Source: a virus. Taken from it: a stretch of 64,000 nucleotides of DNA. Position 1 is the stretch's first letter, and each line of letters starts with the position of its first letter. The notes below the pieces were generated by a model. That model made no database searches, was not told the origin of the DNA, and saw only the letters and a program-made list of their open reading frames with translations. Position numbers and translations under genes: made by a program. Where the stretch lies: the IMG/VR virus record IMGVR_UViG_3300045988_051021; one strand, written 5' to 3'. Positions 2,819-40,000 of this stretch are shown here, piece by piece.

Positions 2819-2837
2819 CACTTTTTAAGTCAAACTG

Positions 2838-17672: not shown

Positions 17673-17673
17673 A

Positions 17674-24930: not shown

Positions 24931-25202
24931 AGTATAGGAAGAAACCAGTTATCATTGAAGCTATACAGTTTGAAGATAATTCAGACCGTATTATAGAAAT
25001 TCATGAGTTTATGGGAGGTGATACTATAAGAGTAAACTACGAAGATAAGGATAATCCTTATCTGAAGATTGAGACTCTTGAAGGTATAATGAAAGCCTCT
25101 GTTGGAGATTATATCATTAAAGGAGTGAATGGGGAGTTCTATCCTTGCAAGCCAGATATATTTGAGAAAACTTATGAAAGAGTAATTGATGAGGCTGATT
25201 AA
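24927..25202 (+). CDS. hypothetical protein (common phage small beta-rich family)
   Basis: ATGA overlap with the CYTH gene; KKPVIIEAIQF ... GDYIIKG..GEFYPCKPDIFEKTYE. Confidence 0.55.
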   Translation: MKYRKKPVIIEAIQFEDNSDRIIEIHEFMGGDTIRVNYEDKDNPYLKIETLEGIMKASVGDYIIKGVNGEFYPCKPDIFEKTYERVIDEAD

Positions 25203-25617
25203 ACCATCATTTGAAATAATTGAACAAAAGCCTGGAATAGATGGGCTGTTACAACATATAGAAAGATGTGGTAGAACTTGTTATAAGTCAGAAGACAAAA
25301 TAACAGAAGATAGTGCAGAGAAATTTGTCAATATGCTTGTAAATCGTGGTCATACTGCAATGGTAGAACATGGTACTGTATACCTGACACTTGGTATGCC
25401 TGATAGGTGGGCATATTTTAAGTATTGTACTAACAAATATTCTGAAGCTATTAGTGAGGGTGAGGCTGAAAAAGGTACATGGGTTGGTTATGTAACTACC
25501 AATTACAGAGTGCTATTGCAGAATGATTGGTTAGATGATTTGCAGTATTTAACAGAGCCTACTAAGCATATTAGAAAAGTTACTGTTAAGTTTGTATGTG
25601 ATAGAGGAGTATCCCAT
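25189..25617 (+). CDS. thyX: FAD-dependent thymidylate synthase ThyX, exon 1
   Basis: HIERCGRTCYKS, GHTAMVEHGTVYL. The reading frame leaves ThyX-like sequence right after ..CDRGVSH (codon CAT 25615-25617) and hits a stop at 25633-25635. Confidence 0.85.
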
Positions 25618-25709
25618 AAGAAATTTGTGGCTTAATACAGTAATGTATTGAGAAAACCCAATGAATTGCTGGAAAGCTAAATTTATTAGGTTATTTAAAA
25701 ATTTATTAC

Positions 25710-25745: not shown

Positions 25746-26501
25746 ATGAAAATAGGTGATAAATTTAATGATTGGACTGTTATTGATGATAAATCAATAA
25801 ATCGGAATGGGGCTACCATGTATTTATGTAAATGTAAATGTGGTAAAGAGCAGTATGTTCAAAGCTCAGGTTTAAAGTTGGGAAAAAGTAAAATGTGTAA
25901 AGAGTGTAGTAGTTTAGCCAGAAGAGCTAAGATTGATATAGGCAAAAAATATAAATCCTATACTGTAATATCTGGGCCACATAGACGAAACTCCCAATTA
26001 GTATATTTAGTAAGATGTGAATGCGGAAGTGAACATTATATGCCGGCTTCTCAAATACTAGATCCAAACAAGTACTTTAAGTGCAAAAGATGTGCTTCTG
26101 GTAATATAGTATCTGGATTTAGGGAAGGATTTTTAAACACCTTTAAAAGGAGTGCAGAATCTAGAGGAATATTTTACTCAGAAGGCCTTACGCCAGAATA
26201 TTTGTATAAGTTATTAGAATCTCAAAATTTTAGATGTGCTTTATCAGGATATAAATTACTTCCGAATGATACTCTTGATGACACTAAACAAAATTTGGAC
26301 CTATCTTTAGATAGAATAGATTCTAGTAAAGGTTACGAAATAGGAAATGTTCAATGGGTTACTAAATATGTTAACTGGGCTAAGAATGATTTATCTCAAG
26401 AAGATTTTATTAATTTATGTATTGCAGTTGCTAATAAACATGCTAATCAGCAGCCAAGCCAACCTTTAACAAAGTTGGAAGGTTCAGAGACTAACAGTTG
26501 A
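25746..26501 (+). CDS. intron-encoded HNH-type (His-Me finger) homing endonuclease
   Basis: Two repeated Zn-ribbon modules (YLCKCKCGKEQYV / YLVRCECGSEHYM, each followed by a CxxC); C-terminal LSLDRIDSSKGYEIGNVQWVTKYVNWAKN is typical of the phage HNH family that has DRID in place of DHID. Confidence 0.8.
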   Translation: MKIGDKFNDWTVIDDKSINRNGATMYLCKCKCGKEQYVQSSGLKLGKSKMCKECSSLARRAKIDIGKKYKSYTVISGPHRRNSQLVYLVRCECGSEHYMPASQILDPNKYFKCKRCASGNIVSGFREGFLNTFKRSAESRGIFYSEGLTPEYLYKLLESQNFRCALSGYKLLPNDTLDDTKQNLDLSLDRIDSSKGYEIGNVQWVTKYVNWAKNDLSQEDFINLCIAVANKHANQQPSQPLTKLEGSETNS

Positions 26502-26690
26502 AACTATGAATTATATAGAAGAATATAAAAAATGTATCAATAATTTTGATTATTGGTTAGAACATTATGTTAAGTTTATAGAATATAATACTGACACGAG
26601 TGTTGGGCATCCTGTAAAGGATGATGATATAGTCCGATACTCCTTGGAAATGAGGAGAGTTAAGGATAAAGAGCCTTAACATAACAAATG

Positions 26691-27206
26691 GAATTTGTAA
26701 GACATAGAGTGTTTAGTTTTGCTCAGGAGAGTACTAGATACTGTAACTATAGTAAGGATAAGTTTGGTAAGGAATGTACATTCATTATTCCTTCTTGGTT
26801 AGATGTTCCAGAAGGGGAAGCATACTTCCACGATGGTATAAACTTTAGAGTTGGGGCTAATGAAGAAGATATATTTGGAGAATCTGTAAATCCAAGGGCT
26901 TGGACTAGGAGCAACGATTGGAAAGAGGTTGATTCATTCTTACGTGCTTTAGAAGTCGCTGAAAACCAATACTTTGATTTACTAAACTTAGGGTGGATTG
27001 CACAACAAGCTAGAGCAGTTCTTCCTAATAGTTTAAAGACTGAGTTAATTATGACTGGTACTATTGAGCAATGGGAAGGATTCTTTAAACTGAGGTGCGC
27101 AAAGGATGCTCATCCTCAAGCTAGGGAGTTGGCAGTACCTCTGTATGAAGAGTTCGTCAAACGAGGATATATTACTGCACGAATATCTAAGGAGATATTA
27201 TGCTAA
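26691..27206 (+). CDS. thyX: FAD-dependent thymidylate synthase ThyX, exon 2
   Basis: Begins EFVRHRVFSFAQESTRY, the ThyX signature RHRxxSxxxxSxR; the in-frame ATG at 26688 is an intron-end artefact of ORF calling. Confidence 0.85.
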   Translation, partial: EFVRHRVFSFAQESTRYCNYSKDKFGKECTFIIPSWLDVPEGEAYFHDGINFRVGANEEDIFGESVNPRAWTRSNDWKEVDSFLRALEVAENQYFDLLNLGWIAQQARAVLPNSLKTELIMTGTIEQWEGFFKLRCAKDAHPQARELAVPLYEEFVKRGYITARISKEILC

Positions 27207-27603: not shown

Positions 27604-28290
27604 ATGAAGGCTGAGGAGTACTTTGGTGACTGGATTGATGTTATTGATAAAGAGGAATTACGAAGAGTAGTAACTTGGGTCAATAAGATTAATTCAGCTA
27701 ATCTGTGTCCTTCTCCTAAGAACATCTTTAGAGCATTTAGGGCTTGCTCATTTAAGGACTGCAAGGTGGTCTTTCTTGGGCAAGACCCTTACCCTCAAAG
27801 AGGAGTAGCTACTGGAATACTGTTTGGTAATTCAGAGGATACTTCTGAGGAGTATCTATCTCCTTCACTTAAAGTAGTTAAAGAGGCAGCTATTAATTAT
27901 GAAATTCCCCATAACCTTATAGAGTTTGACAATACGTTAGAGTCTTGGGCTGAGCAGGGAATATTAATGATTAATACAGCCCTTACTTGTGAGGTAGGCA
28001 GAGTTGGAGCACACTTTGATATATGGAAACCATTTGTATCTAAGTTGATTCACAACATGAGCTATAAAGATGGAGGTATGATTTATGTTTTATTTGGCAG
28101 CCAAGCTGGGTTATTTAAGAATGATATAGTGAATAGCTTAAAGACAATCGAAGTATATCATCCAGCATATTATGCTAGGACTGGTAAGAAGATGCCTAGT
28201 AGTGTATTTACTGACATCAATCAGGCGTTGAAGCAGCAGTATAACTATCAAATAGAATTTTATAAGGAGACGGAATATGGAACGTGCTAA
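27604..28290 (+). CDS. uracil-DNA glycosylase, family-1-like variant
   Basis: VVFLGQDPYPQRGVATGILFGN (GQDPY water-activating loop) and C-terminal YHPAYYA in the position of HPSPLS. The track start 27592 is TTG; ATG is at 27604. Confidence 0.8.
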   Translation: MKAEEYFGDWIDVIDKEELRRVVTWVNKINSANLCPSPKNIFRAFRACSFKDCKVVFLGQDPYPQRGVATGILFGNSEDTSEEYLSPSLKVVKEAAINYEIPHNLIEFDNTLESWAEQGILMINTALTCEVGRVGAHFDIWKPFVSKLIHNMSYKDGGMIYVLFGSQAGLFKNDIVNSLKTIEVYHPAYYARTGKKMPSSVFTDINQALKQQYNYQIEFYKETEYGTC

Positions 28291-28483
28291 TAGAAAATCA
28301 GTAAATGATAATTTACGCAAGTATGACCATTTAGCTAAGAAGGATGACTTTATTGAAGTTACTGAATGGACTAATGGTGAAGGTTGGGATATTACTATAA
28401 ATGATAGGGTAATCCCACTAACTCGTGGTGAATTGGATGCTATTGATTATCTAACTAAAGGTTTAGATTATGATAACGATTAA
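28277..28483 (+). CDS. hypothetical protein
   Basis: 68-aa ORF. Confidence 0.5.
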   Translation: MERANRKSVNDNLRKYDHLAKKDDFIEVTEWTNGEGWDITINDRVIPLTRGELDAIDYLTKGLDYDND

Positions 28484-28495
28484 TAATTGTAAAAG

Positions 28496-29146
28496 ATGAA
28501 AGAACAGAAGTTTGAATTTAGTGCTAAGAACACTTTCTTTACCTCTGACACTCACTTTGGTCATGCTAATATCATAAGATTGTGCAATAGACCATTTAAG
28601 GATGTTGAGGAAATGAATGAAAAGTTAGTTGAGAACTGGAATAGAGTAGTCCCAGAGGATGGTACAGTCTTCCACTTAGGAGATTTTGCCTTTGGTGGAA
28701 GTGCTCTATGGAACAGCATCATCCCTCGTCTGAATGGACAAATCTACTTGATTATAGGTAATCATGATAGAAAGAATCTAAGACAGGGTTATATGGATAA
28801 GTTTGTTGGGGTGTTACCACAAATGCAAATCCAGATAGAGAAGAGAAGTATCTATTTGAATCATTACCCATTCCTGTGCTATGGTGGTTCATATCGTAAC
28901 GATGCTGATGCTGTATGGCAGTTATTCGGTCATGTTCACTCTGGTCCGACTAGTTCTGGATTGGATTGTGATAGGTTAGTTCATCTATTCCCCTATCAAT
29001 ATGATGTAGGTGTAGATAACAACAACTATACTCCAATCTCTTGGACTGAGGTAAAGGAGAAGATTCAGCACCAAATAGATGAAGGAGTAGAGAAATCTGT
29101 TAAGGAACACACCATTCCTGACGAAGTGTATAAACTAAGTGACTAA
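28496..29146 (+). CDS. calcineurin-like metallophosphoesterase
   Basis: TSDTHFGH, HLGDF, GNHD, GHVH in canonical order. Confidence 0.8.
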   Translation: MKEQKFEFSAKNTFFTSDTHFGHANIIRLCNRPFKDVEEMNEKLVENWNRVVPEDGTVFHLGDFAFGGSALWNSIIPRLNGQIYLIIGNHDRKNLRQGYMDKFVGVLPQMQIQIEKRSIYLNHYPFLCYGGSYRNDADAVWQLFGHVHSGPTSSGLDCDRLVHLFPYQYDVGVDNNNYTPISWTEVKEKIQHQIDEGVEKSVKEHTIPDEVYKLSD

Positions 29147-29357
29147 AATATCTTTAGAAATTGACGGACGAGTATTCTCTATGGAGTTGCCTTATAATGA
29201 TGCAACTGCTGAGGAGCTAATTAAAGGATTCTGTACTCTAATGCATGGACAAACGTTTCTTATTTGCACCATCAAAGATGCCTTAAGAGATGCTGCTCAG
29301 GACTATAGAGAGGACATAGAATTAGGTTATGAACCCGAATACTCTAAGGAAGATTAA
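29139..29357 (+). CDS. hypothetical protein
   Basis: 72-aa ORF with GTG start overlapping the upstream stop. Confidence 0.45.
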   Translation: MTKISLEIDGRVFSMELPYNDATAEELIKGFCTLMHGQTFLICTIKDALRDAAQDYREDIELGYEPEYSKED

Positions 29358-29652
29358 AAGGTTAGAAGCTGGTGAATCATTCATTACCAGTGAACCAGGT
29401 AACTCAATGCTTCCATTATATAAAAGTAATGAGAAGCATTTGGTTACTCCTATTAAATGGGAAGATTGTAAAGTGGGTGATGTAGTATTCTGTAAAGTAA
29501 GAGGTTCATGTGTAACTCACAAGGTCTATGCAGTAGACAATGAGAAAGGTTGCTTAATAGGCAACAACAAGGGACACATGAATGGCTGGACTAAGAATGT
29601 CTATGGACTTGCCCACAAAATTGACCAATCACTAAAAACAAAGAAAGTTTGA
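29329..29652 (+). CDS. S24/S26-like peptidase-fold protein (weak)
   Basis: EPGNSMLPLY (GxSMxP Ser-nucleophile motif), VGDVVFCKV, THKVYAV (possible Lys base). Confidence 0.4.
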   Translation: MNPNTLRKIKRLEAGESFITSEPGNSMLPLYKSNEKHLVTPIKWEDCKVGDVVFCKVRGSCVTHKVYAVDNEKGCLIGNNKGHMNGWTKNVYGLAHKIDQSLKTKKV

Positions 29653-30344
29653 AAATTTGTGTAACATCTGACTTGCATGGTATTCTACCTAAGATAGAAG
29701 AACCTTGTGAAGTTGTACTGATATGTGGAGACATCATGCCGCTGCGTATGCAGAGGAACATTCCTCAAAGTGAAAAATGGTTAAAGACTACATTTGCTGA
29801 GTGGGTTAATAATCTCCCTTGTGAATCAGTTATCATGGTAGGAGGTAATCATGACTTCGCCTTAGCTAATATGTATAGGCAACCTCTAAAGATTAACTCA
29901 ATATTGAGTAATCCTACTAATGGTAAACTTGAGTTATTAGATAATGAAGCAACATCTGTTGTTAGTAAGGATGGTAAGGTATATGATATATGGGGAACTC
30001 CCTATTGTAAAATCTTCGGTAACTGGGCATATATGTATGAACCAGAGACCTTGATTAAAGCGTATGAATCTATGCCTCAGCATTGTGATATTGTTATATC
30101 TCACGATGCACCTAAGCTATGTGGTTTAGGTGTTATTCACCAGAGATTTGACAGAGAGGATGCTGGTAATCCTTGGTTAGCTGATGAAATGCTTCGTAAA
30201 CATCCTAGATATACATTCTGTGGACATATTCATAGTGGTGAGCATGAATTGCAAACCCTTGACGATATGAAGATGGCTAATGTATCTTTAGTAGATGAAA
30301 CTTACACTGAAACTTTTAAACCTTTATACCTCGATGTCGAATAA
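29649..30344 (+). CDS. calcineurin-like metallophosphoesterase
   Basis: TSDLHG, ICGDI, GGNHD, SHDAP, CGHIH; TTG start (TTGA overlap). Confidence 0.75.
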   Translation: MKICVTSDLHGILPKIEEPCEVVLICGDIMPLRMQRNIPQSEKWLKTTFAEWVNNLPCESVIMVGGNHDFALANMYRQPLKINSILSNPTNGKLELLDNEATSVVSKDGKVYDIWGTPYCKIFGNWAYMYEPETLIKAYESMPQHCDIVISHDAPKLCGLGVIHQRFDREDAGNPWLADEMLRKHPRYTFCGHIHSGEHELQTLDDMKMANVSLVDETYTETFKPLYLDVE

Positions 30345-30543
30345 TAAAGTTGTAGTACAAGGAGGAGTTGGATTCCCTGGATTGTTGTTTATAGTACTGT
30401 TAGTTTGTAAACTATTTGGTGCTAACATAACATGGTTCTGGGTATTTGCTCCATTATGGATTCCACTTGCATTAATAGCAGGATTCTTTGTTGTATCAAT
30501 TCTAATTGCAATACTTGTAGCATGGAAAAGAAAACTACTTTAG
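30334..30543 (+). CDS. small membrane protein (two TM segments)
   Basis: 69 aa from the ATG at 30334; FPGLLFIVLLVCKLF and WIPLALIAGFFVVSILIAILVAW hydrophobic stretches. Confidence 0.5.
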   Translation: MSNNKVVVQGGVGFPGLLFIVLLVCKLFGANITWFWVFAPLWIPLALIAGFFVVSILIAILVAWKRKLL

Positions 30544-31106
30544 TAGTTGTGGACTTCCAGTATGACTTCTGTCTACTGGGAGCACCACTCTACGTTCCTG
30601 GGTCTGATAAGGCTCTGTGGAACATTTCTCATTTAATTGAGAATAAGAAAGTTGATAGAGTGATATTCACTGCTGATTGGCATCTAGCTAACCACTGTTC
30701 ATTTAAAAGGAATGGTGGTGAATGGAACGACCATTGTATGCAGTTCTCTAAAGGAGCAGCTATACATGATTTGTTATTGTATGGTTGTGTGGGTGCTGGT
30801 ATACCTTATGAAGTACTCACTAAAGGAACTTTATCCAGTTCTGAAGAATACGGGGTTAAGGTAGCTCCTGCTACTATAAGGGTTAACTATCATACTATCT
30901 ATAGCCATTCTATGGGTATTGATATTAACCCAGACGAGCAGGTAGTGGTATGTGGATTAGCAGGTGATTATTGTGTTCTTGAAACCTTAAAGAACCTGGA
31001 ACCAATCAAACCTATGGTATATCTTGATGGTATAGCATCTCTGGATGGTGGCATAAAATTAACTGATTATATCGAAAGTAATAACACAAGATTATTTGAA
31101 CTATGA
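30522..31106 (+). CDS. pncA: nicotinamidase (isochorismatase family, PncA-like)
   Basis: LVVVDFQYDFC (catalytic Asp), FTADWHLANHCSF + WNDHC (metal site; compare E. coli QDWHPANHGSF / WPDHC), TKG (Lys), VCGLAGDYCV (catalytic Cys). The N-terminal extension in the track is the other frame of the membrane gene. Confidence 0.9.
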   Translation: MEKKTTLVVVDFQYDFCLLGAPLYVPGSDKALWNISHLIENKKVDRVIFTADWHLANHCSFKRNGGEWNDHCMQFSKGAAIHDLLLYGCVGAGIPYEVLTKGTLSSSEEYGVKVAPATIRVNYHTIYSHSMGIDINPDEQVVVCGLAGDYCVLETLKNLEPIKPMVYLDGIASLDGGIKLTDYIESNNTRLFEL

Positions 31107-32266
31107 TTGTAAAATCAATCCTTGATACGGACTTGTATAAGTTTACAACTTCGTATGCTTACATGAAACTATTCCCTCATGCAATAGGGACGTTTGAGTT
31201 CTTTGATAGGGACAACACAGAGTACACAGAAGAGTTTGTTCAACAATTATGGATAGAAATATCTAACTTCTGTTCTCTAAAATTAACTCACGATGAACAA
31301 GACTATATGACGACACATTGTCGTTTCATTCCTCCCATGTATTGGGAATGGTTAAGTGGAATTAGACTCAGTGCTGGTAAGGTGCAGATATGGTTAGATG
31401 AAGATAAGCATCTCCATATTAAAGCTACTGATTACCTTTACAGAGTTACCCTGTATGAAGTACCAATCTTAGCAATAGTATCAGAGCTTCGTAATAGAAT
31501 GCTTAATAATACTATCAATATGACAGATGTTCTTATTAGACTAGAGCCTAAAATAGTTCTATCTAATCAGAATCAAATGTTCTTCTCAGAATTTGGTACT
31601 CGTAGACGCTATTCATATAATGTCCAGGAAGCTATAGTAAAGAGCTTGAAAGATAGTGCAACCTATTGTACTGGCACTTCTAACTGTTACTTGGCAATGA
31701 AGTATGATATGCCTATGATGGGAACACACCCTCATGAGTGGTTTATGTTCCACGGTGCTATATATGGCTATAAACAAGCCAATTATATGGCATTGGAAGA
31801 CTGGGTAAGTGTATATGATGGCGATTTGGGTATTGCATTAAGTGATACTTATACTTCTGCTGTGTTCTTTAAGAATCTGTCTCGTAAGCAAGCAAAGCTG
31901 TTTGACGGTGTACGTCAAGATAGTGGAGATGAATTTAAGTTTGTAACAAGTGCTATTGCACGTTATAAAGAACTTGGAATTGACCCTACTACTAAGACAA
32001 TTATCTTTAGTAATGCCCTTACATTTGAGAAGGCTCTTGAAGTCCGAGAATATTGTAGAGGGCGTATCCGTTGTGCATTTGGTATTGGAACCAACCTCAC
32101 TAATGATACTGGACATAAACCCTCCAATATTGTTATGAAATTGACCTCTTGCCAAATGAATAAAAATCAACCTGTATTTAACTGTGTGAAACTGTCTGAT
32201 GATTTGGGTAAGCACACTGGTCTGGAACAAGAAGTGGAACATTGTATGAATGAACTAGGATTATGA
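31103..32266 (+). CDS. pncB: nicotinate phosphoribosyltransferase (PncB-like)
   Basis: ILDTDLYKFT, FSEFGTRRR, MMGTHPHEWF (phospho-His region; compare E. coli GTQAHEWF), GVRQDSGD, FGIGTNLT. At 387 aa it has PncB size rather than NAMPT size. Confidence 0.9.
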   Translation: MIVKSILDTDLYKFTTSYAYMKLFPHAIGTFEFFDRDNTEYTEEFVQQLWIEISNFCSLKLTHDEQDYMTTHCRFIPPMYWEWLSGIRLSAGKVQIWLDEDKHLHIKATDYLYRVTLYEVPILAIVSELRNRMLNNTINMTDVLIRLEPKIVLSNQNQMFFSEFGTRRRYSYNVQEAIVKSLKDSATYCTGTSNCYLAMKYDMPMMGTHPHEWFMFHGAIYGYKQANYMALEDWVSVYDGDLGIALSDTYTSAVFFKNLSRKQAKLFDGVRQDSGDEFKFVTSAIARYKELGIDPTTKTIIFSNALTFEKALEVREYCRGRIRCAFGIGTNLTNDTGHKPSNIVMKLTSCQMNKNQPVFNCVKLSDDLGKHTGLEQEVEHCMNELGL

Positions 32267-33147
32267 AAGAGTTAAATTATGAAAGAGTATTCAATATTCT
32301 CGTCAAAGAGACATCGAATTATATTACTAGGAATCGTCTTAATGCTATGGTTCTTGGGATTAGTGGTGGTATTGATTCAACTGTAGTGGCAGCTATCTGC
32401 CATGAAGTGAGTAAACAAACTGGCATTCCTCTAATAGGTAGAAGTCTACCTATTAAGAACAAGAATGACGAGTTTAGTGTATCGAAGTTAGTAGGAAATG
32501 CCTTCTGTGATGATTTTAAGGTAGTAAATCTTAGTTATATGTGCCAGCATGTAATCCAGGCTATTTATGATGGTGAAGGTACTCTTGGTACTCCTATCTC
32601 TAAGGGCAATATTCAGGCTAGACTTAGAATGATTTATCTCTACAATCTAGCAGGAATCAATAGAGGCTTAGTAATGGATACTGATAACCTTACTGAACAT
32701 AATCTCGGATTCTGGACTATTCATGGTGATGTAGGTGACTTTGACCCAATTCAAGGTCTATGGAAGACTGAAGTGTATGAATTAGCTAAGTGGCTAATAG
32801 GGTATTACTATGAGTGTGGGATAAAGAAAGAAGTGGATGCAGATGGCGCTAGGAAGATTTGTGATATGTGTGAGGCTATTAAAAAGTCAATGTCTCTTAC
32901 TCCTACTGATGGTCTTGGTATTAGTAATAGTGACTTAGACCAAATAGGAGCTAAGAGTTATTATGACGTTGATAGAGTATTACAGACTCTTACTTGTAAG
33001 GCTTCTCCAGAGAATAATAAACTACAAGACGAATTAACCGCTGAACTTGGTCCAGATGTTGTAGGTAAGATTACTGAACGGCGCTTCAAATCTAGGTTCA
33101 AGAGATTAGTTAGTCCTATCATAGTGCCAAGGGAAATGTATGATTGA
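32263..33147 (+). CDS. nadE: NH3-dependent NAD+ synthetase
   Basis: PP-loop VLGISGGIDST (SGGxDS at 32362-32379); 294 aa with no glutaminase domain. Confidence 0.9.
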   Translation: MKELNYERVFNILVKETSNYITRNRLNAMVLGISGGIDSTVVAAICHEVSKQTGIPLIGRSLPIKNKNDEFSVSKLVGNAFCDDFKVVNLSYMCQHVIQAIYDGEGTLGTPISKGNIQARLRMIYLYNLAGINRGLVMDTDNLTEHNLGFWTIHGDVGDFDPIQGLWKTEVYELAKWLIGYYYECGIKKEVDADGARKICDMCEAIKKSMSLTPTDGLGISNSDLDQIGAKSYYDVDRVLQTLTCKASPENNKLQDELTAELGPDVVGKITERRFKSRFKRLVSPIIVPREMYD

Positions 33148-33259
33148 CTTCTTAGAGCTAATTCTAGAATTAGTAAATGTTAAATCACGTAATGAGCTAG
33201 TAGCTCTGCTTGTTATAGGCGGAGTACTAGCCATTATCTATTATTTGTTTCTTATATGA
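33140..33259 (+). CDS. possible 39-aa single-TM peptide (below ORF-track cutoff)
   Basis: Read by hand as MIDFLELILELVNVKSRNELVALLVIGGVLAIIYYLFLI; ATG overlaps the nadE end and its TGA overlaps the next ATG (ATGA). Confidence 0.3.
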   Translation: MIDFLELILELVNVKSRNELVALLVIGGVLAIIYYLFLI

Positions 33260-33507
33260 AATTATATTATTTATTTTTGTTAGTAATGTTCCTTCTAATG
33301 GGTTGTACCAATTCATCTAACATTAGTGGTCCAGATGTTATAGGGACATCTAAGATGTATGGAGATGTGCATAGATACACCATTGATGAGCATGAGTATA
33401 TAAAAATGGGTAATGGCTTTACACACTCTGGTACTTGTAAGAAGTGCAAGAAGGAGTTGGAAAGCACCATCCGTAAAATAGTTAAGGAGGAACATTCACA
33501 ATGGTAG
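33256..33507 (+). CDS. putative lipoprotein
   Basis: Signal peptide with lipobox: MKLYYLFLLVMFLLMGC (L-M-G-C). Confidence 0.6.
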   Translation: MKLYYLFLLVMFLLMGCTNSSNISGPDVIGTSKMYGDVHRYTIDEHEYIKMGNGFTHSGTCKKCKKELESTIRKIVKEEHSQW

Positions 33508-34061
33508 GAGTATTCTTTGGGTCTTTTGACCCACCCCATATTGGTCATGTTAATATTGTCACAGCTGCACTTAATTCTGGTATTGTTGACAAGGTTATAG
33601 TAGTTCCAGCATATAAGAGTGTATGGAAGAATACTGAAACTAAGTGGGAGTATAGACTCACTATGGCTAAGGAAACCTTTGATAACATTCCTGGAGTAGT
33701 TGTGGATGGTATTGAATATCGTATCGCTAATGGAGAACCATTGCCTACTTATAAGACTATTGAAGCAATAAAAGAGATTTACGGTGAGTTTACTATCGTA
33801 ACATCTGCTGAGACTTATAAGGAGATTCCAAGGTGGCAGCATGGTGAAGAGATACTAAAGGACAATAAGTTCTTAGTAGTAGATGTAGCACACTTTAATA
33901 GTGAGGATATTCCACATGATGAAGTGAAAGTTATCTATGCTCCTGATATTACAATATGCTCTACAGCTATCAGAAAGTGGGTTGATGATGGTAGAATTAT
34001 ATTACCATTTGTAACAGATGAAGTAAATTCAATAATTAGAAAGCTTGGGTTATACAAATGA
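33501..34061 (+). CDS. nadD: nicotinate/nicotinamide mononucleotide adenylyltransferase (NadD-type)
   Basis: GSFDPPHIGH (GxFxPxHxGH, 33519-33548) and ICSTAIRKWV (ISSTxIR). Confidence 0.9.
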   Translation: MVGVFFGSFDPPHIGHVNIVTAALNSGIVDKVIVVPAYKSVWKNTETKWEYRLTMAKETFDNIPGVVVDGIEYRIANGEPLPTYKTIEAIKEIYGEFTIVTSAETYKEIPRWQHGEEILKDNKFLVVDVAHFNSEDIPHDEVKVIYAPDITICSTAIRKWVDDGRIILPFVTDEVNSIIRKLGLYK

Positions 34062-34591
34062 GTCAAATCTATGTTTCAGGTCCTTGGTCTTTTGCTTCTG
34101 GAGTACAGCAAGTAGTTAAGAGTATAAAGGCTAAATCTAAGGGAGATAAGGTAGTTTATAGTGAGAAAGGAACTGAATACCAGTTCTCTAAACTAGAACA
34201 ATCCGACTATGTCGTATTCGTGTTAGATGGATTTGCATGGCAACAGAGGTTAGAAAGTATTTCTAAGGGAATGCTCTCAGAACTTATATGGTGTATTAAT
34301 CATAGAGTACCAATGTTCTTAGCTTACAAATCAGCTAATGAGTTAGGCATATATGCAACTGAAATAGATGACAATTTAACCTTTAAGGGGATTGCAGGCA
34401 CTGCTGACAACTTCTACCAGATTATAAACAATCAGTTTGGGACTATTGTAGCTCCAAATGATACTCCTGGGTTTGTTCTGAGTCACCAAGACACAGTATT
34501 AGGGAGTGATTGTGTATATTTGAAGGGGGAGTGGATAGCTGACCCATTAGATTTCCTTAATGTTGAACAACCAAAGAGTTACTTTTATTAA
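34058..34591 (+). CDS. hypothetical protein inside the NAD cluster (weak nucleoside 2-deoxyribosyltransferase-like pattern)
   Basis: IYVSGPWS ... SDYVVFVLDG ... SKGMLSELIWCINHRVPMFLAY loosely follows the NDT/Rcl-like Rossmann pattern (IYxAGP ... D-hhh ... GTxxE..A...gkPv); not robust. Confidence 0.5.
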   Translation: MSQIYVSGPWSFASGVQQVVKSIKAKSKGDKVVYSEKGTEYQFSKLEQSDYVVFVLDGFAWQQRLESISKGMLSELIWCINHRVPMFLAYKSANELGIYATEIDDNLTFKGIAGTADNFYQIINNQFGTIVAPNDTPGFVLSHQDTVLGSDCVYLKGEWIADPLDFLNVEQPKSYFY

Positions 34592-34592
34592 T

Positions 34593-35135
34593 ATGAAGAA
34601 TTTTCCTTTATTAGACGAGAATGGTAAGGAATGGTGGATTAGCCGTTCTATTGCTGTAACAGGGTGTATATTTACATTCCTAAATGGTAAGTGGTGTGTA
34701 TTAGCCAATAAGAGAGGTGAAGGCACTCCCGACTTCCAGGGAATGTGGAATATGCCATGTGGTTACTTAGACTTTGATGAAACTACAGCACAAGCTGTAA
34801 TCAGAGAAGTCTATGAAGAGACTGGTATTAAAGTGAACCCAGACCACTTGCACTTCTGGAAGTTTAATGATTCCCCAACTCAGAATAGACAGAATGTGTC
34901 ATTTAGATACTATGCTCTAGTTGACGCACAGCCAGGTAATATCAGTGTAGGCACTGGTAATGACAGGGGAGGTGAAGAGGATGAAGTGGAAGCTATAGGA
35001 TGGATTCCAGTAGACTCTATTGATAAATATCAGTGGGCATTTGGTCACGATGAAATCATTAAGGAGTTTACTGAGTGGATGCACCTAGAAGATGGAGATT
35101 TGGATATGCAAGACATAGACTTAGACCCAGTATGA
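34593..35135 (+). CDS. Nudix hydrolase
   Basis: Canonical Nudix box GYLDFDETTAQAVIREVYEETGI (34761-34829); the ATG at 34593 directly follows the upstream stop. Confidence 0.9.
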   Translation: MKNFPLLDENGKEWWISRSIAVTGCIFTFLNGKWCVLANKRGEGTPDFQGMWNMPCGYLDFDETTAQAVIREVYEETGIKVNPDHLHFWKFNDSPTQNRQNVSFRYYALVDAQPGNISVGTGNDRGGEEDEVEAIGWIPVDSIDKYQWAFGHDEIIKEFTEWMHLEDGDLDMQDIDLDPV

Positions 35136-35248
35136 CATACTTTATAAGTGGACATAGAGACTTAACATGGGGTTTGAGTGATGCGGATGTTGAACAAGCA
35201 ATACATATTCTAAATGATGCCAATACAGCCACTAAGGCACATCTATAA
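35132..35248 (+). CDS. possible 38-aa ORF
   Basis: ATGA overlap with the Nudix stop; MTYFISGHRDLTWGLSDADVEQAIHILNDANTATKAHL; see findings. Confidence 0.25.
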   Translation: MTYFISGHRDLTWGLSDADVEQAIHILNDANTATKAHL

Positions 35249-35399
35249 TGACCCTTCGTTAGATAGAGAACTTCTATTGAGGAAGCTAGCATCTCTTAGA
35301 CTAAAGAGTATGATTAGTATTGAAGAATATGAGTATTTAAGACATTTAATAAGAAAGGAGAACGAGAATGCTCAGAGAGCAAATGGATGCACTTATTAA
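35214..35399 (+). CDS. possible 61-aa ORF
   Basis: Helical-looking sequence (DRELLLRKLASLRLKSMISIEEYEYLRHLIRKENE); different frame from 35132 and overlaps the next gene by 32 nt. Confidence 0.3.
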   Translation: MMPIQPLRHIYNDPSLDRELLLRKLASLRLKSMISIEEYEYLRHLIRKENENAQRANGCTY

Positions 35400-35853
35400 G
35401 CAGTCTATGCTTGATAAGAATGTAAAGAGGACAGAGGTGTTAAGAGCTATTAAGAATGAGTTCTTAGTGTATCAAACTGCTAAAGGTGCTAAGCCTTTAG
35501 ATGATGCAGCCGAGTTTACTATTCTTCGTAAGATGGTAAAGCAAAGATTGGATAGTAGAGACCAATATCTGGAAGGTGGAAGGAAAGACCTAGCTGATAA
35601 TGAATCTAAAGAGATTCTAGTGCTTGAGTCTTTCCTTCCTCGACAAGCCACGGTTGAGGATGTCAATAAAGCAGTCGCAGAAATATGTAAGGAGAGAGGC
35701 TGGTATATTCCAGAGGAAGACTACGGAGAAGGCGCAATCTCCCCACAAATCCCGAAAAAGTCTATGGGAGAGGTTATTAAATTGGTCAAGACACAGCTTA
35801 ATAATGTAGATGGTAAATTACTGGCAGACACTGTTAAAACATATCTAGTATGA
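35368..35853 (+). CDS. GatB/YqeY-domain protein
   Basis: LREQMDALIKQSMLDKN..EVLRAIKNEF...ILRKMVKQRLDSRDQYLEGGRKDLADNESKEILVLESFLP is collinear with the YqeY family pattern. Confidence 0.8.
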   Translation: MLREQMDALIKQSMLDKNVKRTEVLRAIKNEFLVYQTAKGAKPLDDAAEFTILRKMVKQRLDSRDQYLEGGRKDLADNESKEILVLESFLPRQATVEDVNKAVAEICKERGWYIPEEDYGEGAISPQIPKKSMGEVIKLVKTQLNNVDGKLLADTVKTYLV

Positions 35854-36290
35854 AAGCGTATATAGGAAACGTAGACTGGGCAGACGAAGGAGATGTATTC
35901 TTCTTTAGCGTAGAAAGTGAAGAGAATCTAAAAGCAATGAAGGACTTAATAGATATTCTCGTAGAGCTTGATTTATTCTACTCAACAGAGATGTATTGGG
36001 GAACCAATGAATACTTTGACTTCGGGGCAGATGACTTCCTGGAATTTATTAATGAAGCTAAGGATATATCTGAAGAAGAATTAGCTACACTTAATAAATT
36101 CAAAATATCTGGGTTTGACATTTTTGAAAGAATGTCAGATAAACTACATGACCTAATTTGGGACTTGGATTATGATATTTCGCAGGAAGATTTAGATAGA
36201 ATCAAACCTCTCTATATTAAGCTGTATGACCAGAAGAGTTGGGAGGATATTCAAAAATGGTTTGACAATAAGAGGGAACATGACGATTAA
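35850..36290 (+). CDS. hypothetical acidic protein
   Basis: 146-aa ORF, ATGA coupling, Asp/Glu-rich. Confidence 0.6.
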   Translation: MKAYIGNVDWADEGDVFFFSVESEENLKAMKDLIDILVELDLFYSTEMYWGTNEYFDFGADDFLEFINEAKDISEEELATLNKFKISGFDIFERMSDKLHDLIWDLDYDISQEDLDRIKPLYIKLYDQKSWEDIQKWFDNKREHDD

Positions 36291-36528
36291 AGAAATTGTA
36301 ACCTTAAAGGGTCTAGCTAGGTTTAGTCATGCTATAGCAGGAACTCTATACTACAAAATTGAAACAGATGATGCAACTGTAGAGTTTCCTATTGACATGA
36401 ACGATAAGGATGATGTGGGTACAACCACATTTGTAGCTTCCTATAAACCCATTACATTGATGAGGTACATAAGAAAGGCTATAGAGAATGGAACCTTAAT
36501 TAAGGTTGATAAATCTAAGTTGAAATAA
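36280..36528 (+). CDS. hypothetical protein
   Basis: The ATG at 36280 overlaps the upstream stop; 82 aa; last gene before the 137-nt AT-rich gap. Confidence 0.5.
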   Translation: MTIKEIVTLKGLARFSHAIAGTLYYKIETDDATVEFPIDMNDKDDVGTTTFVASYKPITLMRYIRKAIENGTLIKVDKSKLK

Positions 36529-36594
36529 TTGTGCTATATAATAATTAACTAATATATCTAACTCTACTCGAATTTCATAAAATTCATAGTTTAA

Positions 36595-36628
36595 TTTGGT
36601 AATACTGCTTATAATGCCTATATTTGTA
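36595..36628 (+). promoter_or_regulatory. Bacteroides-type promoter of the virion-protein block (TTTG -33 / TATATTTG -7)
   Basis: TTTG 36595-36598, 20-nt spacer, TATATTTGTA 36619-36628; 38 nt upstream of the ATG at 36666. Confidence 0.6.
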
Positions 36629-36665
36629 GAAATTAAGTGGTTAAACTGTTTAAACGTATTAATTT

Positions 36666-36980
36666 ATGAAAATCGAAGAGAAATTTAGAAAATTCCAACA
36701 AGGTGGTGCTGCACCTCAGCCAGGAGCTGAACAAGCAGGAGGAGCACCAGCTGAGGGAGCACCGGCAGAAGGTGGTGCACCTGCTGAGGGTGGACAAGAC
36801 CCAATGGCACAGATTTTACAAGTAGCTGCTCAGGCAGTTCAGACACAGAATTGTGAAGCTGCGATGGCTGTGTGTCAAGCCCTAATGCAAATCGCTCAAG
36901 GTGGTGCTGCTCAGGAACAAGCTCCTCAAGAGGAACCAACTTTTGCAAGGAAAGGTGCTAGACTAGTAAGAGTAAGATAA
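36666..36980 (+). CDS. small low-complexity Ala/Gly/Gln/Pro-rich protein (probable virion or cargo component)
   Basis: 104 aa; three degenerate 15-nt repeats encode APAEG (36744-36791); locally GC-richer than its surroundings; own promoter and terminator; N-terminal ...KFQQGG motif. Confidence 0.7.
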   Translation: MKIEEKFRKFQQGGAAPQPGAEQAGGAPAEGAPAEGGAPAEGGQDPMAQILQVAAQAVQTQNCEAAMAVCQALMQIAQGGAAQEQAPQEEPTFARKGARLVRVR

Positions 36981-36999
36981 TTAGTCAACAAGGTAAGAA

Positions 37000-37030
37000 G
37001 GGGCGTATATTAATTATATGCTCCTTTTTT
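37000..37030 (+). terminator. rho-independent terminator/attenuator
   Basis: GGGGCGTATA (37000-37009) pairs with TATATGCTCC (37015-37024): 10 bp including 2 G-U; 5-nt loop; T6 (37025-37030); only 14 nt before the next ATG. Confidence 0.65.
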
Positions 37031-37044
37031 ATTATACATAGTAT

Positions 37045-40000
37045 ATGTCACAAGTAATAAGGAAATATAACTCTGGAGGTCAAACTGATAAGCCTAAGCT
37101 TCTAAGTGTGAAGGGCTTGGGGGATTTCAATCAGGATGATTTAATAAAAAGAGGATACAGAGATGTAGATGAATATGCTTCATCTGAAGGGTTGGGAAAT
37201 ACTGCCGCAGCTGATTTTAGAAACGCTGTACAATATATGCTTGAGGGGATTAGTAATGGCACTATGACTATGGATGCTATGGGTAACTTTCAAGATGCAA
37301 CGGGTCAAAAGTCAAGTACAGGTGAGCTAGATAGAAAGAAGTTTCTAGGAATAAAGACAGGGGTTAAGAATACTGAGAACAATGCTTACGGTCTAGCTGC
37401 TGATTACCTATATAACATCATTAAAGGTTCCCCTCAGTATAAACAACCAGAAGTAAAGAAGGAAAGATTTAACGCTAATAAACTCATGGAAGATGCCATT
37501 TCAAGAGAATGGTATGGAGGTAACGCCATAGATTATAATAATTGGTTCCGTAATAGAACAGAACAAGACCGCAACGCTCTAATGGGTAGAATTTGGGATA
37601 GTGCTGATTATAACCAAATATTTCAATCCCATGACTGGTCTGGAACTAATATAAGGAGTGCAGAAGATTTAGCTGCTCTTGGTAGAGCATATGGTGCGGC
37701 TATTACTAATAACAAACTAGACAATGACGATTATAATACCTTTGCTGCGTTAGGCGGTACTGGTTTAGACAAATTCATAAGACCTACTCAACAAGCAACT
37801 ACCCCACAATCATCTACAGTTGAAGGACAGCAAGGTAAAGTTGATACAAGCTGGACTAACTCAGAATATGATAGGACAGTTGATGATAAAGGTAAATATC
37901 ACATATACAAGAAAGGAACCAATGAAGAGGTAAGTGGAATACTTCCTGGTAATGTATTCAAAGGTGTTGGAAATAGATATGCTTTTGATGGTAATATCTA
38001 CGACGATTCCAACCTACCAGAGCAATATAGACAGGATATTACTAGAGCAAGACAAGCCCAACTCGGTGAATATACAAGTCTTACAGATAATAATCCCTTT
38101 ACTAAGATGCTAAAGGGTCAGGGTTATAATTATATCACTAATTTATCTCAGTTTGCGTCTGGTGTAGGTAATAATGTCTTATACGGAGCATATTCCAATC
38201 CTTCTGACGTGAATGGTAAGATGGGTTTCTACCTAAAGAATCCTACTACTGGTAAGACAACTAGAGGTTCAGTGGAACTTAACAAATCACTAGGTGAATA
38301 CCAATTTATCGGAGAGGATGGTAATGTTATAAATCTAGGAGCATATAACCCTAACGGAGCAAGAGAAAGACAGGGAGTTAAGTTCGTAGACTATACTGAT
38401 ACTTCTAAGGCTAATTGGGAGAATCTATTCAATACATGGATGCAGGACCCAGACTTGTCGAATCCAGCTAGTGAGGCATACCGAATGGTGCAAAACACTT
38501 TGAGTAAGTGGATTGACTCAAAACAATCCCCATTTGTAAAATATGGTAAGGATTATAAATGGGCTGTTGGGGACAATGACATGAATGTTGCAAGAAACAA
38601 CGATGGTACACTATCATGGTATTTCAATAATAAAGTTGAAAGTGAGGATGAATCTAGCAATGAGCTACGGAGGCTGTTAAGTATCCCAACCGCTGAGAGA
38701 AGTAGAGAAATAAATGACAGAATATTAAAGTTACAAGGATACAAAAAAGGTGGTGTAATAAGTGCCCAACTAGGTACTAAGTTTATAGAAGACACTACCC
38801 CACTAAAAGTAAGTGCAGTACAACCTGATGCTGAACAGATTGAAAGGAATACTAAAGCTAGACAATCATTTACTGGTAGGTCCAATGTATCACTAGGTAA
38901 CAATAAGGATATAACTGATGCAGGTGGTGTTATAAAAACATCCGATAAAGTTAGGCTTGGTGCGGCTATGGCAGACCTAGCTAGTATTGGTTTAGGATTC
39001 GTTCCTGGAGCTAATTTAGCCTCTGCAGGAGTGGGAGTTGGTGCTTCTCTCGCCGAGTTTGGGGCTGATTTAGCTAGTGATGGACCTCAATGGGGTGACC
39101 TTGGTAGACTTGGAGTGAATTTAGGAATGGATGCCCTATCCTTGATTCCTGTTGGGAAGACATTAAAGGCTACTAAAGCTTTAGGTAAAATAAAGAAGTC
39201 AATTCCAGTACTTATGACTCTTATTAATACTACTCCTTATCTTGACCCAGCAATAAGGTCAGAGTATAGTAAGACACTATCAAAGCTTACTAAAGGCGAT
39301 ATAAAGAGCCTGAATACTGGAGACTTTAAGAACCTCTCTGCTATTGCTAGTACTGTATTAATGGGTAAGAATTTAGCCCAATCTCACAGAGGTTGGTGGA
39401 ACTCTTCAACTACTCCTTCGGGTAAAAGACGGGTTACAGCTATGATTGATGGTAAGCAACAAACACTAGAGGTAGACGATGCGTTCTTCCAGAATACTAA
39501 AGGTAAGAATCAGGTAGCAGAACTTAAGACTAAGTTTGCTGAACAATATAACAAAGCTAATAAACTTGAGGGAGATAAGGCTATAAAGCCCGAAAGTGTG
39601 TCCGTAGACACTAAATACTTTGGAAGAAGGCCTCAGTCTGAAGAGGTTGAGGGAACAAAAACTGATGGTAATTGGTTCTCTAACAGCTTAATTGGTAAGC
39701 ACATAGCTGGTTATAGAGACCCGTCTGTAGTAAGAGGTAGTGAGAATATTCCATTCTCCGATGCTTGGTTCTTAAAGAAGGGTTCAACTAAGCCAAAGTC
39801 TGTGGTTCAGTCTAAATCAATAAATGAAACTGCCGATGCAGTATCTTCTATGATAGGAGCACTTCATACAGCATCAAAATTTAGGCAAGCCCCATTAGCT
39901 CTACCAGCTCCTGGACAAGTAACTCCATCTAATAGAGTATTCTATATGGGTTCAGGTAAACCTAAGGCTCCCAAAGATGTAACTAATCCATCTAATCTTA

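Follow-up and report, generated by a model that had tools for sequence, protein, structure and literature searches.

Reconstitution of nicotinamide adenine dinucleotide (NAD+) by phages is a newly recognised and broad strategy of immune evasion. Three NAD+ reconstitution pathways (NARP1-3) have been validated, none of them with the deamidated Preiss-Handler chemistry. Here we describe an operon-like cluster of about 4.8 kb that is predicted to encode a deamidating route from nicotinamide to NAD+. It occupies positions 30334-35135 of a 64,000-nt stretch of the IMG/VR record IMGVR_UViG_3300045988_051021 (hereafter, the window), which we assign to a crAss-like phage.

Among the validated pathways, NARP2 (Nampt and Nmnat, as in NadV/NatV of Vibrio phage KVP40) overcomes NADase defences (Osterman et al., 10.1101/2024.02.11.579819), and NARP3 (PnuC and NadR) counters Sir2-HerA (Sci Adv 2026, PMC13464706). 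PncA, PncB, NadD and NadE of phages go unmentioned in the NARP1/2 and NARP3 papers and in the pan-viral NAD survey. In a 2024 Microbiome study, 174 gut jumbo phages were annotated with complete NAD+ pathways (PMC11662467). These annotations include 'Preiss-Handler' clusters of pncB, nadD and nadE (Kuafu_71, Kuafu_19) in gut jumbo phages with Bacteroidota hosts (PMC11662467). A counter to NAD+ depletion was proposed for them as speculation, the work being bioinformatic only (PMC11662467).

Enzymes of the predicted salvage route

Enzyme families were assigned by Pfam and NCBIfam profile searches, by sequence comparison with the Protein Data Bank (PDB) and by alignment of motifs across phage lineages. 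Judged in this way, the cluster encodes every enzyme family needed to convert nicotinamide via nicotinate, nicotinate mononucleotide (NaMN) and nicotinate adenine dinucleotide (NaAD) to NAD+, and a Nudix hydrolase in addition. The original prediction of a complete nicotinamide-to-NAD+ enzyme set in a phage is borne out, as all four families were recognised. The open reading frames (ORFs) lie on the + strand where it had placed them, all of them co-directional, and every motif quoted for the enzymes was found in the translations. Profile searches put the five ORFs into the families it had named (PncA above the Pfam and below the equivalog cutoff), and the catalytic residues of PncA, PncB, NadE, NadD and the Nudix protein are present and kept across lineages. 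Chance is excluded, because E-values reach 1e-130 and the synteny recurs in about 35 independent viral contigs.

The translational coupling that had been proposed is visible as ATGA stop/start overlaps at three gene junctions: PncA/PncB (31103-31106), PncB/NadE (32263-32266) and NadD/177-aa protein (34058-34061). The ORF of a small putative lipoprotein shares 7 nt with NadD, one base separates the stop codon of the 177-aa protein from the ATG of the Nudix gene, and only NadE and the lipoprotein ORF are set apart by a gap of some size (108 nt). Since the genes are translationally coupled in one block, they should be co-produced during infection. A sigma-70 promoter scan of 28000-37200 stayed at chance level, with 34 sites against 35.6 expected, Bacteroides and phage promoters falling outside the models of the tool. 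Terminator-like sites in the same region were uninformative (5 against 3.4 expected), and Rfam, applied to the entire window at gathering threshold, gave no riboswitch, intron or other RNA family.

PncB is clearly assigned by its sequence as a type I nicotinate phosphoribosyltransferase (NAPRTase). It exceeds the cutoffs of the equivalog model TIGR01514 (411 bits, cutoff 269.55) and of NF003704 (434 bits, cutoff 379), contains the domains PF17767 (NAPRTase_N) and PF04095, and aligns at 1e-119 with the NAPRTase of Porphyromonas gingivalis (2im5), the GTHPHEW motif being preserved. Its match to the phage Nampt family phrog_448 is weak (4e-12).

NadE scored 120 bits against TIGR00552 (cutoff 63.65) and 4e-36 with PF02540. 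It consists of one domain of 294 aa, without the N-terminal nitrilase/glutaminase domain; its top PDB matches are NH3-dependent synthetases (best 3p52, 6.5e-21), and the PP-loop SGGIDS is invariant across lineages. These features class the protein as a synthetase of NH3-dependent type. NadD was recovered by PF01467 (2e-12), and its seven best NCBIfam matches are all NadD-type models, each below cutoff. The named PDB matches are all NadD structures (best 2h29, 5e-12), and the motifs GSFDPPHIGH (HxGH) and ICSTAIR ((I/C)STxIR) are present and kept in all lineages. NadM models reached only 0.008-0.009, and NadR models 1e-5 to 2e-3 at the NadD N-terminus. On this assignment NaMN, rather than nicotinamide mononucleotide (NMN), is the putative substrate.

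PncA is the weakest family call among the enzymes of the cluster (PF00857, 33 bits, cutoff 27). Its six PDB relatives are all nicotinamidases or pyrazinamidases (3r2j at 9e-17, 1ilw at 3e-14, also 2h0r, 3pl1 and 2wt9), and the motifs VVDfQyDF, aDWH, W..HC, tKG and CG.AgDyCV align with those of nicotinamidases. In particular, the catalytic Asp (VVDFQYDF), Lys (LTKG) and Cys (GLAGDYCV) align with those of 3r2j and 1ilw. The metal site (ADWH and WNDHC) is present, likewise aligned with nicotinamidases and kept across lineages. Phage lineages at 31-45% identity keep both the catalytic and the metal residues. Most of the doubt over PncA is removed, because its relatives of solved structure are all nicotinamidases with aligned catalytic residues, and we regard the protein as a divergent member of the nicotinamidases. 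The PncA ORF overlaps the start codon of PncB and is retained with PncB in every lineage, including the group 2 phages and the distant contig L136 described below.

The predicted route, in which the entry reaction of the pyridine nucleotide cycle precedes the Preiss-Handler pathway, would run in four steps. PncA would deamidate nicotinamide to nicotinate and free NH3, and PncB would join nicotinate and phosphoribosyl pyrophosphate (PRPP) to give NaMN in an ATP-stimulated reaction. NadD would then convert NaMN with ATP to NaAD, and the single-domain NadE would use ATP and free NH3 to turn NaAD into NAD+. As NadE is single-domain and of the NH3 type, the ammonia released by PncA may feed it, and would do so stoichiometrically. 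Such a phage-controlled flux from nicotinamide to NAD+ would add to that of the host enzymes. Its likeliest benefit would be an NAD+ pool sustained during infection, especially when host immune NADases such as Sir2, TIR and SEFIR split NAD+, these effectors yielding nicotinamide and ADP-ribose (ADPR).

The Nudix hydrolase and the 177-aa protein

The Nudix protein matches PF00293 (1.2e-16), and the Nudix box GX5EX7REUXEEXGU is matched in the translation by GYLDFDETTAQAVIREVYEETGI and kept in all lineages. NCBIfam matches include NadM-Nudix and NtrR models, and PDB matches over residues 19-156 comprise 2qjt (NadM) and 3gz5/3gz8; otherwise, generic proteins (NudJ, MutT, decapping enzymes) make up most of its sequence matches. 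A proline 16 residues past the Nudix box is conserved, like the box itself, in all lineages and in the annotated ADP-ribose pyrophosphatase of the phage Atu_ph07. A proline at this position is presumably a marker of ADP-ribose pyrophosphatases, and the enzyme probably acts on ADP-ribose or a derivative. The earlier suggestion that it might turn ADP-ribose into AMP and ribose-5-P and so support PRPP supply is speculative, as its matches are generic or of the NadM/NrtR Nudix type. The protein also matches the PADLOC candidate PDC-S07 (3e-11).

The protein of 177 aa is encoded between NadD and Nudix in almost every lineage, even in the distant contigs L134-L136. An AlphaFold2 (AF2) model shows an α/β domain of alternating strands and helices in residues 1-125 (predicted local distance difference test, pLDDT, about 80). 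The C-terminal part of about 50 residues is variable and disordered and always ends in SYFY. The Pfam family Nuc_deoxyrib_tr (PF05014) was matched below threshold (E about 0.01) in 11 of 20 homologues. Foldseek against PDB returned the nucleoside 2-deoxyribosyltransferase (NDT) 7o62 and DNPH1 at probabilities of 0.96-0.99 (7o62, 0.99), and also the SARM1 TIR domain; these matches have low root-mean-square deviation, none with E<1e-3. Viral deoxyribosyltransferases were among the top BFVD matches (3.8e-4).

A deep profile search collected 247 representatives of this family, and an alignment of 50 diverse members shows Y41, G71, E75 and Y99 without variation. No Pfam model was matched among these 50, and the family profile found nothing in PDB sequences. 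As there is no relative at sequence level in PDB or Pfam, the assignment rests on fold-level and subthreshold evidence. The N-terminal domain of about 125 aa is a probable Rossmannoid of the nucleoside 2-deoxyribosyltransferase/TIR class (DrHyd-like), DrHyd being a branch of the TIR-DrHyd-SLOG Rossmannoids (PMC9503650). Binding or cleavage of a nucleotide N-glycoside is the probable role of the DrHyd-like protein, which could either hydrolyse N-glycosides or bind molecules derived from NMN, NAD or ADPR. Distant family members (P0133, P0163, P0176) lie in phage-like neighbourhoods without NAD genes, so the general function of the family is not revealed by its context.

Comparison with known phage and bacterial systems

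The Kuafu-type clusters of jumbo phages resemble the present one in their clustered PncB, NadD and NadE, their gut origin and their predicted Bacteroidota hosts. Going by their description, they differ in three respects. The present carrier is crAss-like, with related contigs of 87-190 kb that remain below the 200-kb definition of jumbo phages; its operon adds a coupled PncA, and so starts at nicotinamide and not at nicotinate; and it has a conserved Nudix hydrolase and a DrHyd-like protein.

With NARP2 the cluster shares classical salvage chemistry, from nicotinamide and PRPP to NAD+, and NatV of NARP2 carries a NadM-type Nudix domain. However, NARP2 takes two amidated steps via NMN, whereas four deamidated steps via nicotinate, NaMN and NaAD are predicted here. 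The enzymes are a NAPRTase by equivalog models and a NadD-type adenylyltransferase, not Nampt and NadM, and the present route requires NadE and ammonia and consumes more ATP. NARP1 (Adps and Namat) and NARP1-AP, which has in addition the Macro phosphatase Adpp, are likewise operons that rebuild NAD+ from NADase products, but by ADP-ribose pyrophosphate (ADPR-PP) chemistry not found in cells. Profile searches gave no Prs-like Adps, Namat or Macro match in any ORF of the cluster, and the phosphoesterase upstream of it is of calcineurin type, not Macro. NARP3, a pair of NAD+-restoring phage genes, likewise includes a membrane protein. It differs in importing nicotinamide riboside and in using the NadR kinase/adenylyltransferase; the small membrane protein of our cluster has no PnuC match, and no NadR was found in the cluster.

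The bacterial pyridine nucleotide cycle, or Preiss-Handler pathway, comprises the same four families with the same predicted chemistry, and the phage PncB is of Bacteroidaceae descent. In bacteria, however, pncB stands alone in 79 of the 80 loci inspected, whereas the viral genes form a coupled operon with a small single-domain NadE and phage-specific accessory genes. Other large phages, the jumbo phages Atu_ph07 (of Agrobacterium) and Phosso and the huge phages LR756500-511, carry PncB and NadE too. In Atu_ph07 (L003, 181824-199035) a PncA-like protein annotated as hypothetical (26% identity), an ADP-ribose pyrophosphatase (27% to our Nudix protein) and PncB occur within about 5 kb, which makes it a looser form of our gene set. 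In these phages, unlike in the present cluster, the genes are dispersed (NadE of Atu_ph07 is about 90 kb from PncB) and identities are 27-43%; a NadD of the cluster type was not detected in them.

Among deposited phages, the combination of PncB and NadE is confined to the present lineage and a small number of huge or jumbo phages, and a NadD of the cluster type joins them only in MT835470. The locus had originally been predicted to be a third, mechanistically distinct phage solution. As worded, this claim is not upheld, since phage Preiss-Handler clusters had already been annotated (PMC11662467) and NARP3 has been validated (PMC13464706). The novelty is smaller than first claimed. It consists of an apparently non-jumbo, crAss-like carrier, a compact and coupled four-enzyme operon starting from nicotinamide, and the DrHyd-like, Nudix and lineage-specific NADAR partners. 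To these are added the evidence for assembly within phages and the natural deletion variants.

Conservation and origin of the cluster

We have identified 49 viral loci with a PncB relative in IMG/VR. About 35 of them, in four to five sub-lineages, share the order phosphoesterase, transmembrane (TM) protein, PncA, PncB, NadE, (lipoprotein), NadD, 177-aa protein, Nudix and, further on, YqeY; the unannotated relative MT835470 has the same gene order. Across sub-lineages PncB is 72-99% identical, while identities of PncA, NadD, NadE and Nudix go down to 31-55%. The distant phage contig L136 has the same gene order at 65% identity to the window for PncB, 52% for Nudix, 47% for NadE, 41% for PncA, 37% for NadD and 32% for the 177-aa protein. 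The catalytic motifs of all enzymes are kept across this divergence of sub-lineages, and their retention at 31-55% identity indicates purifying selection on enzyme activity.

In six loci (L018-L021, L032 and L051) PncB is 86-89% identical to that of the window, against 32% for NadD, 42-43% for Nudix and 45-46% for PncA. This excess conservation of PncB suggests that pncB was exchanged recently, or that distant homologues took the place of the other genes.

The GC content of the cluster (0.36-0.41) is close to that of the phage (0.364), that of Bacteroides loci being 0.43-0.46. The nearest cellular PncB proteins are from Bacteroides, Phocaeicola and Parabacteroides (60-68%), followed by Alistipes (55-59%). 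Exact PncB peptide words had no match in bacterial genome contigs, but an alignment-based scan did match. In the 79 bacterial loci mentioned above, no PncA, NadE, NadD or Nudix gene was found within 6 kb of pncB. As pncB is unclustered in bacteria, we conclude that the operon was assembled in phages from separately acquired genes, and it has long been kept there. It is rare in deposited genomes: only 13 of 50,697 phage records contain PncB, and none of the cultured crAss phages closest by their DNA polymerase does.

Partial forms of the NAD module exist as well. The group 2 phages (contigs of about 10-412 kb, several of them short fragments) have only a CCA-adding enzyme, PncA, PncB, YqeY and, in some cases, Nudix, their surroundings containing neither NadE nor NadD, and the locus L028 is without NadD, the 177-aa protein and Nudix. 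Other lineages have acquired genes inside the cluster. In L136 a NADAR domain (2751-3251), of an ADP-ribose-processing type, lies between PncB and NadE and matches PADLOC PDC-M42C (5e-31). Further insertions are an ABC-type ATPase (L014, 9155-9847), an AAA ATPase (L001, 10152-11255) and a DprA-like protein (phrog_768; L018, 10282-10884). As sister lineages insert different genes here, the cluster is thus a hotspot for NAD/ADPR-themed accessory genes. The suspicion that the system may exceed the enzymes first named has proved right, both by the conserved 177-aa member and by the NADAR, ATPase and DprA-like genes of relatives.

Natural deletions

The cluster is dispensable and constitutes an accessory island that has been repeatedly remodelled and lost in nature, because natural deletions at microhomologies remove salvage genes in some wild genomes. 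A protein search of public assemblies recovered many independent chimeric ORFs with in-frame junctions (P0078, P0084, P0087, P0090, P0092-P0098 and P0112). In some of them the N-terminus of PncA, NadD, NadE or PncB continues into the C-terminal part of the 177-aa protein; the PncB chimera (P0112) was inferred from its Pfam match. Further chimeras join the N-terminus of the 177-aa protein to YqeY or have internal deletions of the 177-aa protein. The junctions are at microhomologies of 2-3 residues (about 5-6 nt), and their in-frame bias may be an artefact of the protein search.

One deletion was verified at DNA level. The 74.7-kb scaffold L053 lacks the segment corresponding to window positions 30800-34392, from the middle of PncA to the middle of the 177-aa protein. 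Its junction (L053 4440-4445) lies at a GC(T/A)GG microhomology, and Nudix and YqeY are retained. The window itself has undergone a deletion. By blastn, 911 bp present in L007 (12076-12986) are absent from it at an ATGGG microhomology, which took out a 125-aa 'FISGHRD' gene and a HAD_SAK_2 gene, both intact in relatives. In the remnant, the first 13 codons of the 'FISGHRD' gene are fused in frame to the last HAD_SAK_2 codons, and its ATG overlaps the Nudix stop codon.

The carrier phage and the neighbouring genes

The placement in a phage, and specifically in Crassvirales, was confirmed by phage genes on both flanks and by the family-A DNA polymerase (PolA), which is 46-56% identical to those of cr111_1, IAS virus, crAss001 (50-56% for these three) and the PhiCrAssBcn phages of Bacteroides. 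The Crassvirales assignment rests on the replication module and the giant ORFs, capsid and terminase genes being outside the window. By the hosts of the relatives and the affinity of PncB, the host is presumed to belong to Bacteroidales. Upstream of the cluster, besides the polymerase, the window encodes an exonuclease, NrdD/NrdG, a Dda-like helicase, a dUTPase, an ATP-dependent DNA ligase, an RNA ligase, a CCA-adding enzyme, polynucleotide kinase-phosphatase (PNKP), a CYTH protein, ThyX, uracil-DNA glycosylase (UDG) and two metallophosphoesterases. Giant ORFs of 1698, 612, 2689 and 3092 aa follow downstream. The cluster is thus placed in the replication and nucleotide-metabolism block of the phage (Table 1). 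The RNA ligase, the CCA-adding enzyme, PNKP and the CYTH protein form an RNA-repair set that probably mends tRNA cut by host anticodon nucleases.

Related contigs with the cluster are 87-190 kb long, none above 200 kb, and the carrier appears not to be a jumbo phage. Many of them are of about 185-190 kb (L005, L013-L015, L027, L034), roughly twice the size of crAss001-type genomes despite a crAss001-like polymerase, and may represent a large crAss-like lineage or concatemers. In the window, ThyX appears split: its N part (Thy1 profile positions 11-63) and C part (73-187) form two ORFs on either side of a 251-aa HNH/endonuclease VII-like ORF, an arrangement that suggests insertion of a homing endonuclease or an intron. 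Rfam at gathering threshold found no group I/II intron in this region.

Table 1 Features of the cluster and its surroundings in the window
Feature	Coordinates	Strand	Evidence or remarks
RNA ligase	15512-16897		RNA-repair set
CCA-adding/PolyA_pol-head nucleotidyltransferase	17647-18429		RNA-repair set
PNKP	18429-19349		RNA-repair set
CYTH protein	24400-24930		RNA-repair set
Apparently split ThyX with HNH/endonuclease VII-like ORF	25186-25635, 25746-26501, 26688-27206		Thy1 profile
Calcineurin-type metallophosphoesterase, MPPED2-like	29649..30344	+	PF00149, 3rl4, PDC-S10
Small membrane protein	30334..30543, alternative start 30295	+	two-helix, sequence reading
PncA-like nicotinamidase	30522..31106	+	PF00857, PDB nicotinamidases, motifs
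PncB nicotinate phosphoribosyltransferase	31103..32266	+	TIGR01514, NF003704, 2im5
NadE, single-domain NH3-dependent type	32263..33147	+	TIGR00552, PF02540, SGGIDS; 294 aa
Small putative lipoprotein, CxxC motif	33256..33507	+	lipobox-like LLMGC
NadD-type nicotinate-mononucleotide adenylyltransferase	33501..34061	+	PF01467, TIGR00482, PDB NadD
Conserved 177-aa protein, DrHyd-like N-terminal domain	34058..34591	+	AF2, Foldseek, subthreshold Pfam
Nudix hydrolase	34593..35135	+	PF00293, canonical box
Deletion remnant, 38-codon fusion ORF	35132..35248	+	blastn vs L007
YqeY/GatB-like protein	35368..35853	+	PF09424 9e-28
Low-complexity ORF, 104 aa	36666-36980		GGAPAEG repeats

The metallophosphoesterase immediately precedes the cluster in every sub-lineage and also in L136 (33-99% identity). 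It matches PF00149 at 2.5e-10 and the MPPED2 structure 3rl4 at 2e-8, and may stand outside the NAD pathway. We considered whether it is the ADPR-1''-phosphate phosphatase of aRES/NARP1-AP and rejected this, as that enzyme is a Macro-domain protein. It also matches the PADLOC phage-defence candidate PDC-S10 (3.6e-32). As both this protein and Nudix match PADLOC candidates, their relatives are enriched near defence islands; the phosphoesterase could conceivably degrade a signal of cyclic-nucleotide type or one derived from ADPR.

The small membrane protein (69-82 aa), judged to have two TM helices, lies upstream of PncA throughout (37-99% identity), with an 85-aa ORF in the same place in L136. 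It matches phrog_1374 (1.3e-12), a family of no assigned function, and had no Pfam or NCBIfam match. The putative lipoprotein carries MKLYYLFLLVMFLLMGC in its translation, with a lipobox-like L-M-G-C. It had no match in Pfam, NCBIfam or phrog profiles, and it is missing from several lineages and hence non-core.

The YqeY/GatB-like gene is a downstream neighbour, syntenic in all lineages. In relatives (L007/L014), Nudix is followed by the 'FISGHRD' gene and by the gene of a HAD_SAK_2 phosphatase (2e-28). The 125-aa product of the former ('FISGHRD...GDxxGxD') has a weak phrog_289 match and looks SLOG/DUF2493-like by eye. HAD_SAK_2 is fused to YqeY in L001 (14132-15037) and L029 (12831-13763) and is a separate gene elsewhere; the fusion implies a functional link of YqeY to RNA-end processing, and YqeY is probably RNA-related rather than NAD-related. 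Further downstream, a low-complexity ORF rich in Ala, Gly, Gln, Pro and Glu adjoins the 1698-aa giant protein on its upstream side, and a long antisense ORF overlaps it.

Selective role of the cluster

We favour the reading of the cluster as a phage deamidating NAD+ salvage operon with counter-defence against NADase effectors as its likeliest selective reason, and hold it to be probable, although far from secure. It is favoured because the pathway enters at nicotinamide, a product of NADases, and because the NAD/ADPR-themed Nudix protein and, in L136, NADAR accompany the cluster. The window yielded no NAD-dependent ligase, ADP-ribosyltransferase (ART), Sir2 or Macro enzyme, so that phage NAD+-consuming enzymes creating a special demand are lacking there. 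The cluster behaves as a conditionally useful accessory, being absent in relatives and deleted in others, and the classical salvage enzymes of NARP2 and NARP3 defeat NAD+-depleting defences.

Several points weigh against this reading. PncA scores 51.6 bits against the nicotinamidase equivalog NF008623 (cutoff 174), and NadD 90.9 bits against TIGR00482 (cutoff 112.45). Our literature search retrieved neither experiments on a deamidating route in phages nor any 'NARP4'. The route costs PRPP and up to three ATP, and NARP2, which likewise consumes PRPP, is reportedly both wasteful and toxic. Since the host lineage has a PncB of its own, the phage copies are superfluous as long as flux is not limiting. 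The observed deletions are equally compatible with a metabolic role or with a balance of costs and benefits. HAD_SAK_2 and YqeY downstream of Nudix point to RNA repair, not NAD, and Nudix, the HAD_SAK_2 remnant and YqeY may all be part of an RNA-repair toolkit.

General auxiliary metabolism, in which the cluster supplies NAD(P) for a large phage or for hosts with poor salvage and has no tie to NADase immunity, is the chief rival and the main interpretation given for the NAD-jumbo phages, where phage and host pathways were seen as complementary (PMC11662467). It would suit the NAD(P)H-using ThyX, NrdD/G and dUTPase encoded in the window, the location of the cluster within the nucleotide-metabolism block and the overproduction of NAD+ by NARP2-type salvage without a defence system. 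We nevertheless find it rather unlikely: the nearest cellular PncB comes from the presumed host lineage, in which the pathway is not obviously missing, the entry at PncA together with Nudix and the NADAR of L136 fits the handling of NAD+ breakdown products, frequent natural loss suggests a conditional and not a constant benefit, and the window has no NAD+-consuming phage enzyme.

A composite locus deserves somewhat more credit, though still short of an even chance. Here the NAD module would be PncA-PncB-NadE-NadD only, and Nudix, 'FISGHRD', HAD_SAK_2, YqeY and the phosphoesterase(s) would be a toolkit for RNA repair or for degrading nucleotide signals, Nudix not being an ADP-ribose recycler. 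In relatives, HAD_SAK_2, a 'Swiss-army-knife RNA repair' HAD protein, is encoded after Nudix, and L001/L029 have it fused to YqeY. The window has RNA ligase, CCA-adding enzyme and PNKP, the sequence matches of Nudix are mostly generic, the L053 variant retains Nudix and YqeY with four enzymes lost, and group 2 places PncA-PncB by the CCA-adding enzyme and YqeY. Yet the order NadD-177-aa protein-Nudix, with overlapping or abutting codons, is kept even in L134-L136, the full-length similarity of Nudix is to ADPR-binding Nudix domains of NadM/NrtR, and a stretch of about 5 kb in Atu_ph07 likewise combines PncB with a PncA-like protein and an annotated ADP-ribose pyrophosphatase. This composition is partly compatible with the counter-defence reading.

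That the PncA-like protein is an isochorismatase-family hydrolase of another substrate, or that NadD uses NMN, is improbable; the cluster would then serve nicotinate (niacin) salvage only, like pncB-nadD-nadE of jumbo phages. PncA is indeed well below the nicotinamidase equivalog cutoff and its Pfam match covers only the N-terminal half, and NadD is below its equivalog cutoffs. But the structural relatives of PncA, its aligned and conserved triad and metal ligands, its overlap with the PncB start and its retention with PncB in every lineage speak for a nicotinamidase.

Least of all do we credit contamination by bacterial DNA, or host DNA captured recently by chance and functionless in the phage, in spite of the 60-68% identity of PncB to that of Bacteroidaceae. 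Phage genes flank the single co-directional block on both sides, intact ORFs and motifs recur in about 35 independent viral contigs of several sub-lineages, and GC has ameliorated to that of the phage. Contamination, misassembly or recent block capture is ruled out by phage synteny, by GC and by the arrangement of the bacterial loci, which lack the gene order of the cluster.

Counter-defence can be framed more specifically, and here we are only tentative. The six proteins PncA, PncB, NadE, NadD, DrHyd-like and Nudix, with NADAR in some lineages, might constitute a 'fourth' NAD+ reconstitution pathway of the crAss lineage. Nicotinamide set free by the immune NADases of Bacteroidales would be turned back into NAD+ along the deamidated route, with the ammonia from PncA re-used in NadE, while the DrHyd-like and Nudix proteins would dispose of or recycle ADP-ribose products or immune signals. 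Such a counter-defence would have been repeatedly gained and lost in wild populations.

Implications

The operon of about 4.8 kb is a compact, well-conserved and easily cloned test case for the deamidated route, and its natural deletion variants offer isogenic comparisons in metagenomes. The DrHyd-like protein and the NADAR, SLOG/DprA-like and ATPase insertions hint at unexplored steps of ADP-ribose handling. CrAss-like phages dominate the human gut, and their counter-defence repertoire is almost unknown. If the 'fourth' pathway is real, the most abundant phage order of the human gut would possess a counter-defence strategy of this kind; if the role of the cluster is merely metabolic, non-jumbo phages would still be able to carry a whole four-step cofactor pathway.

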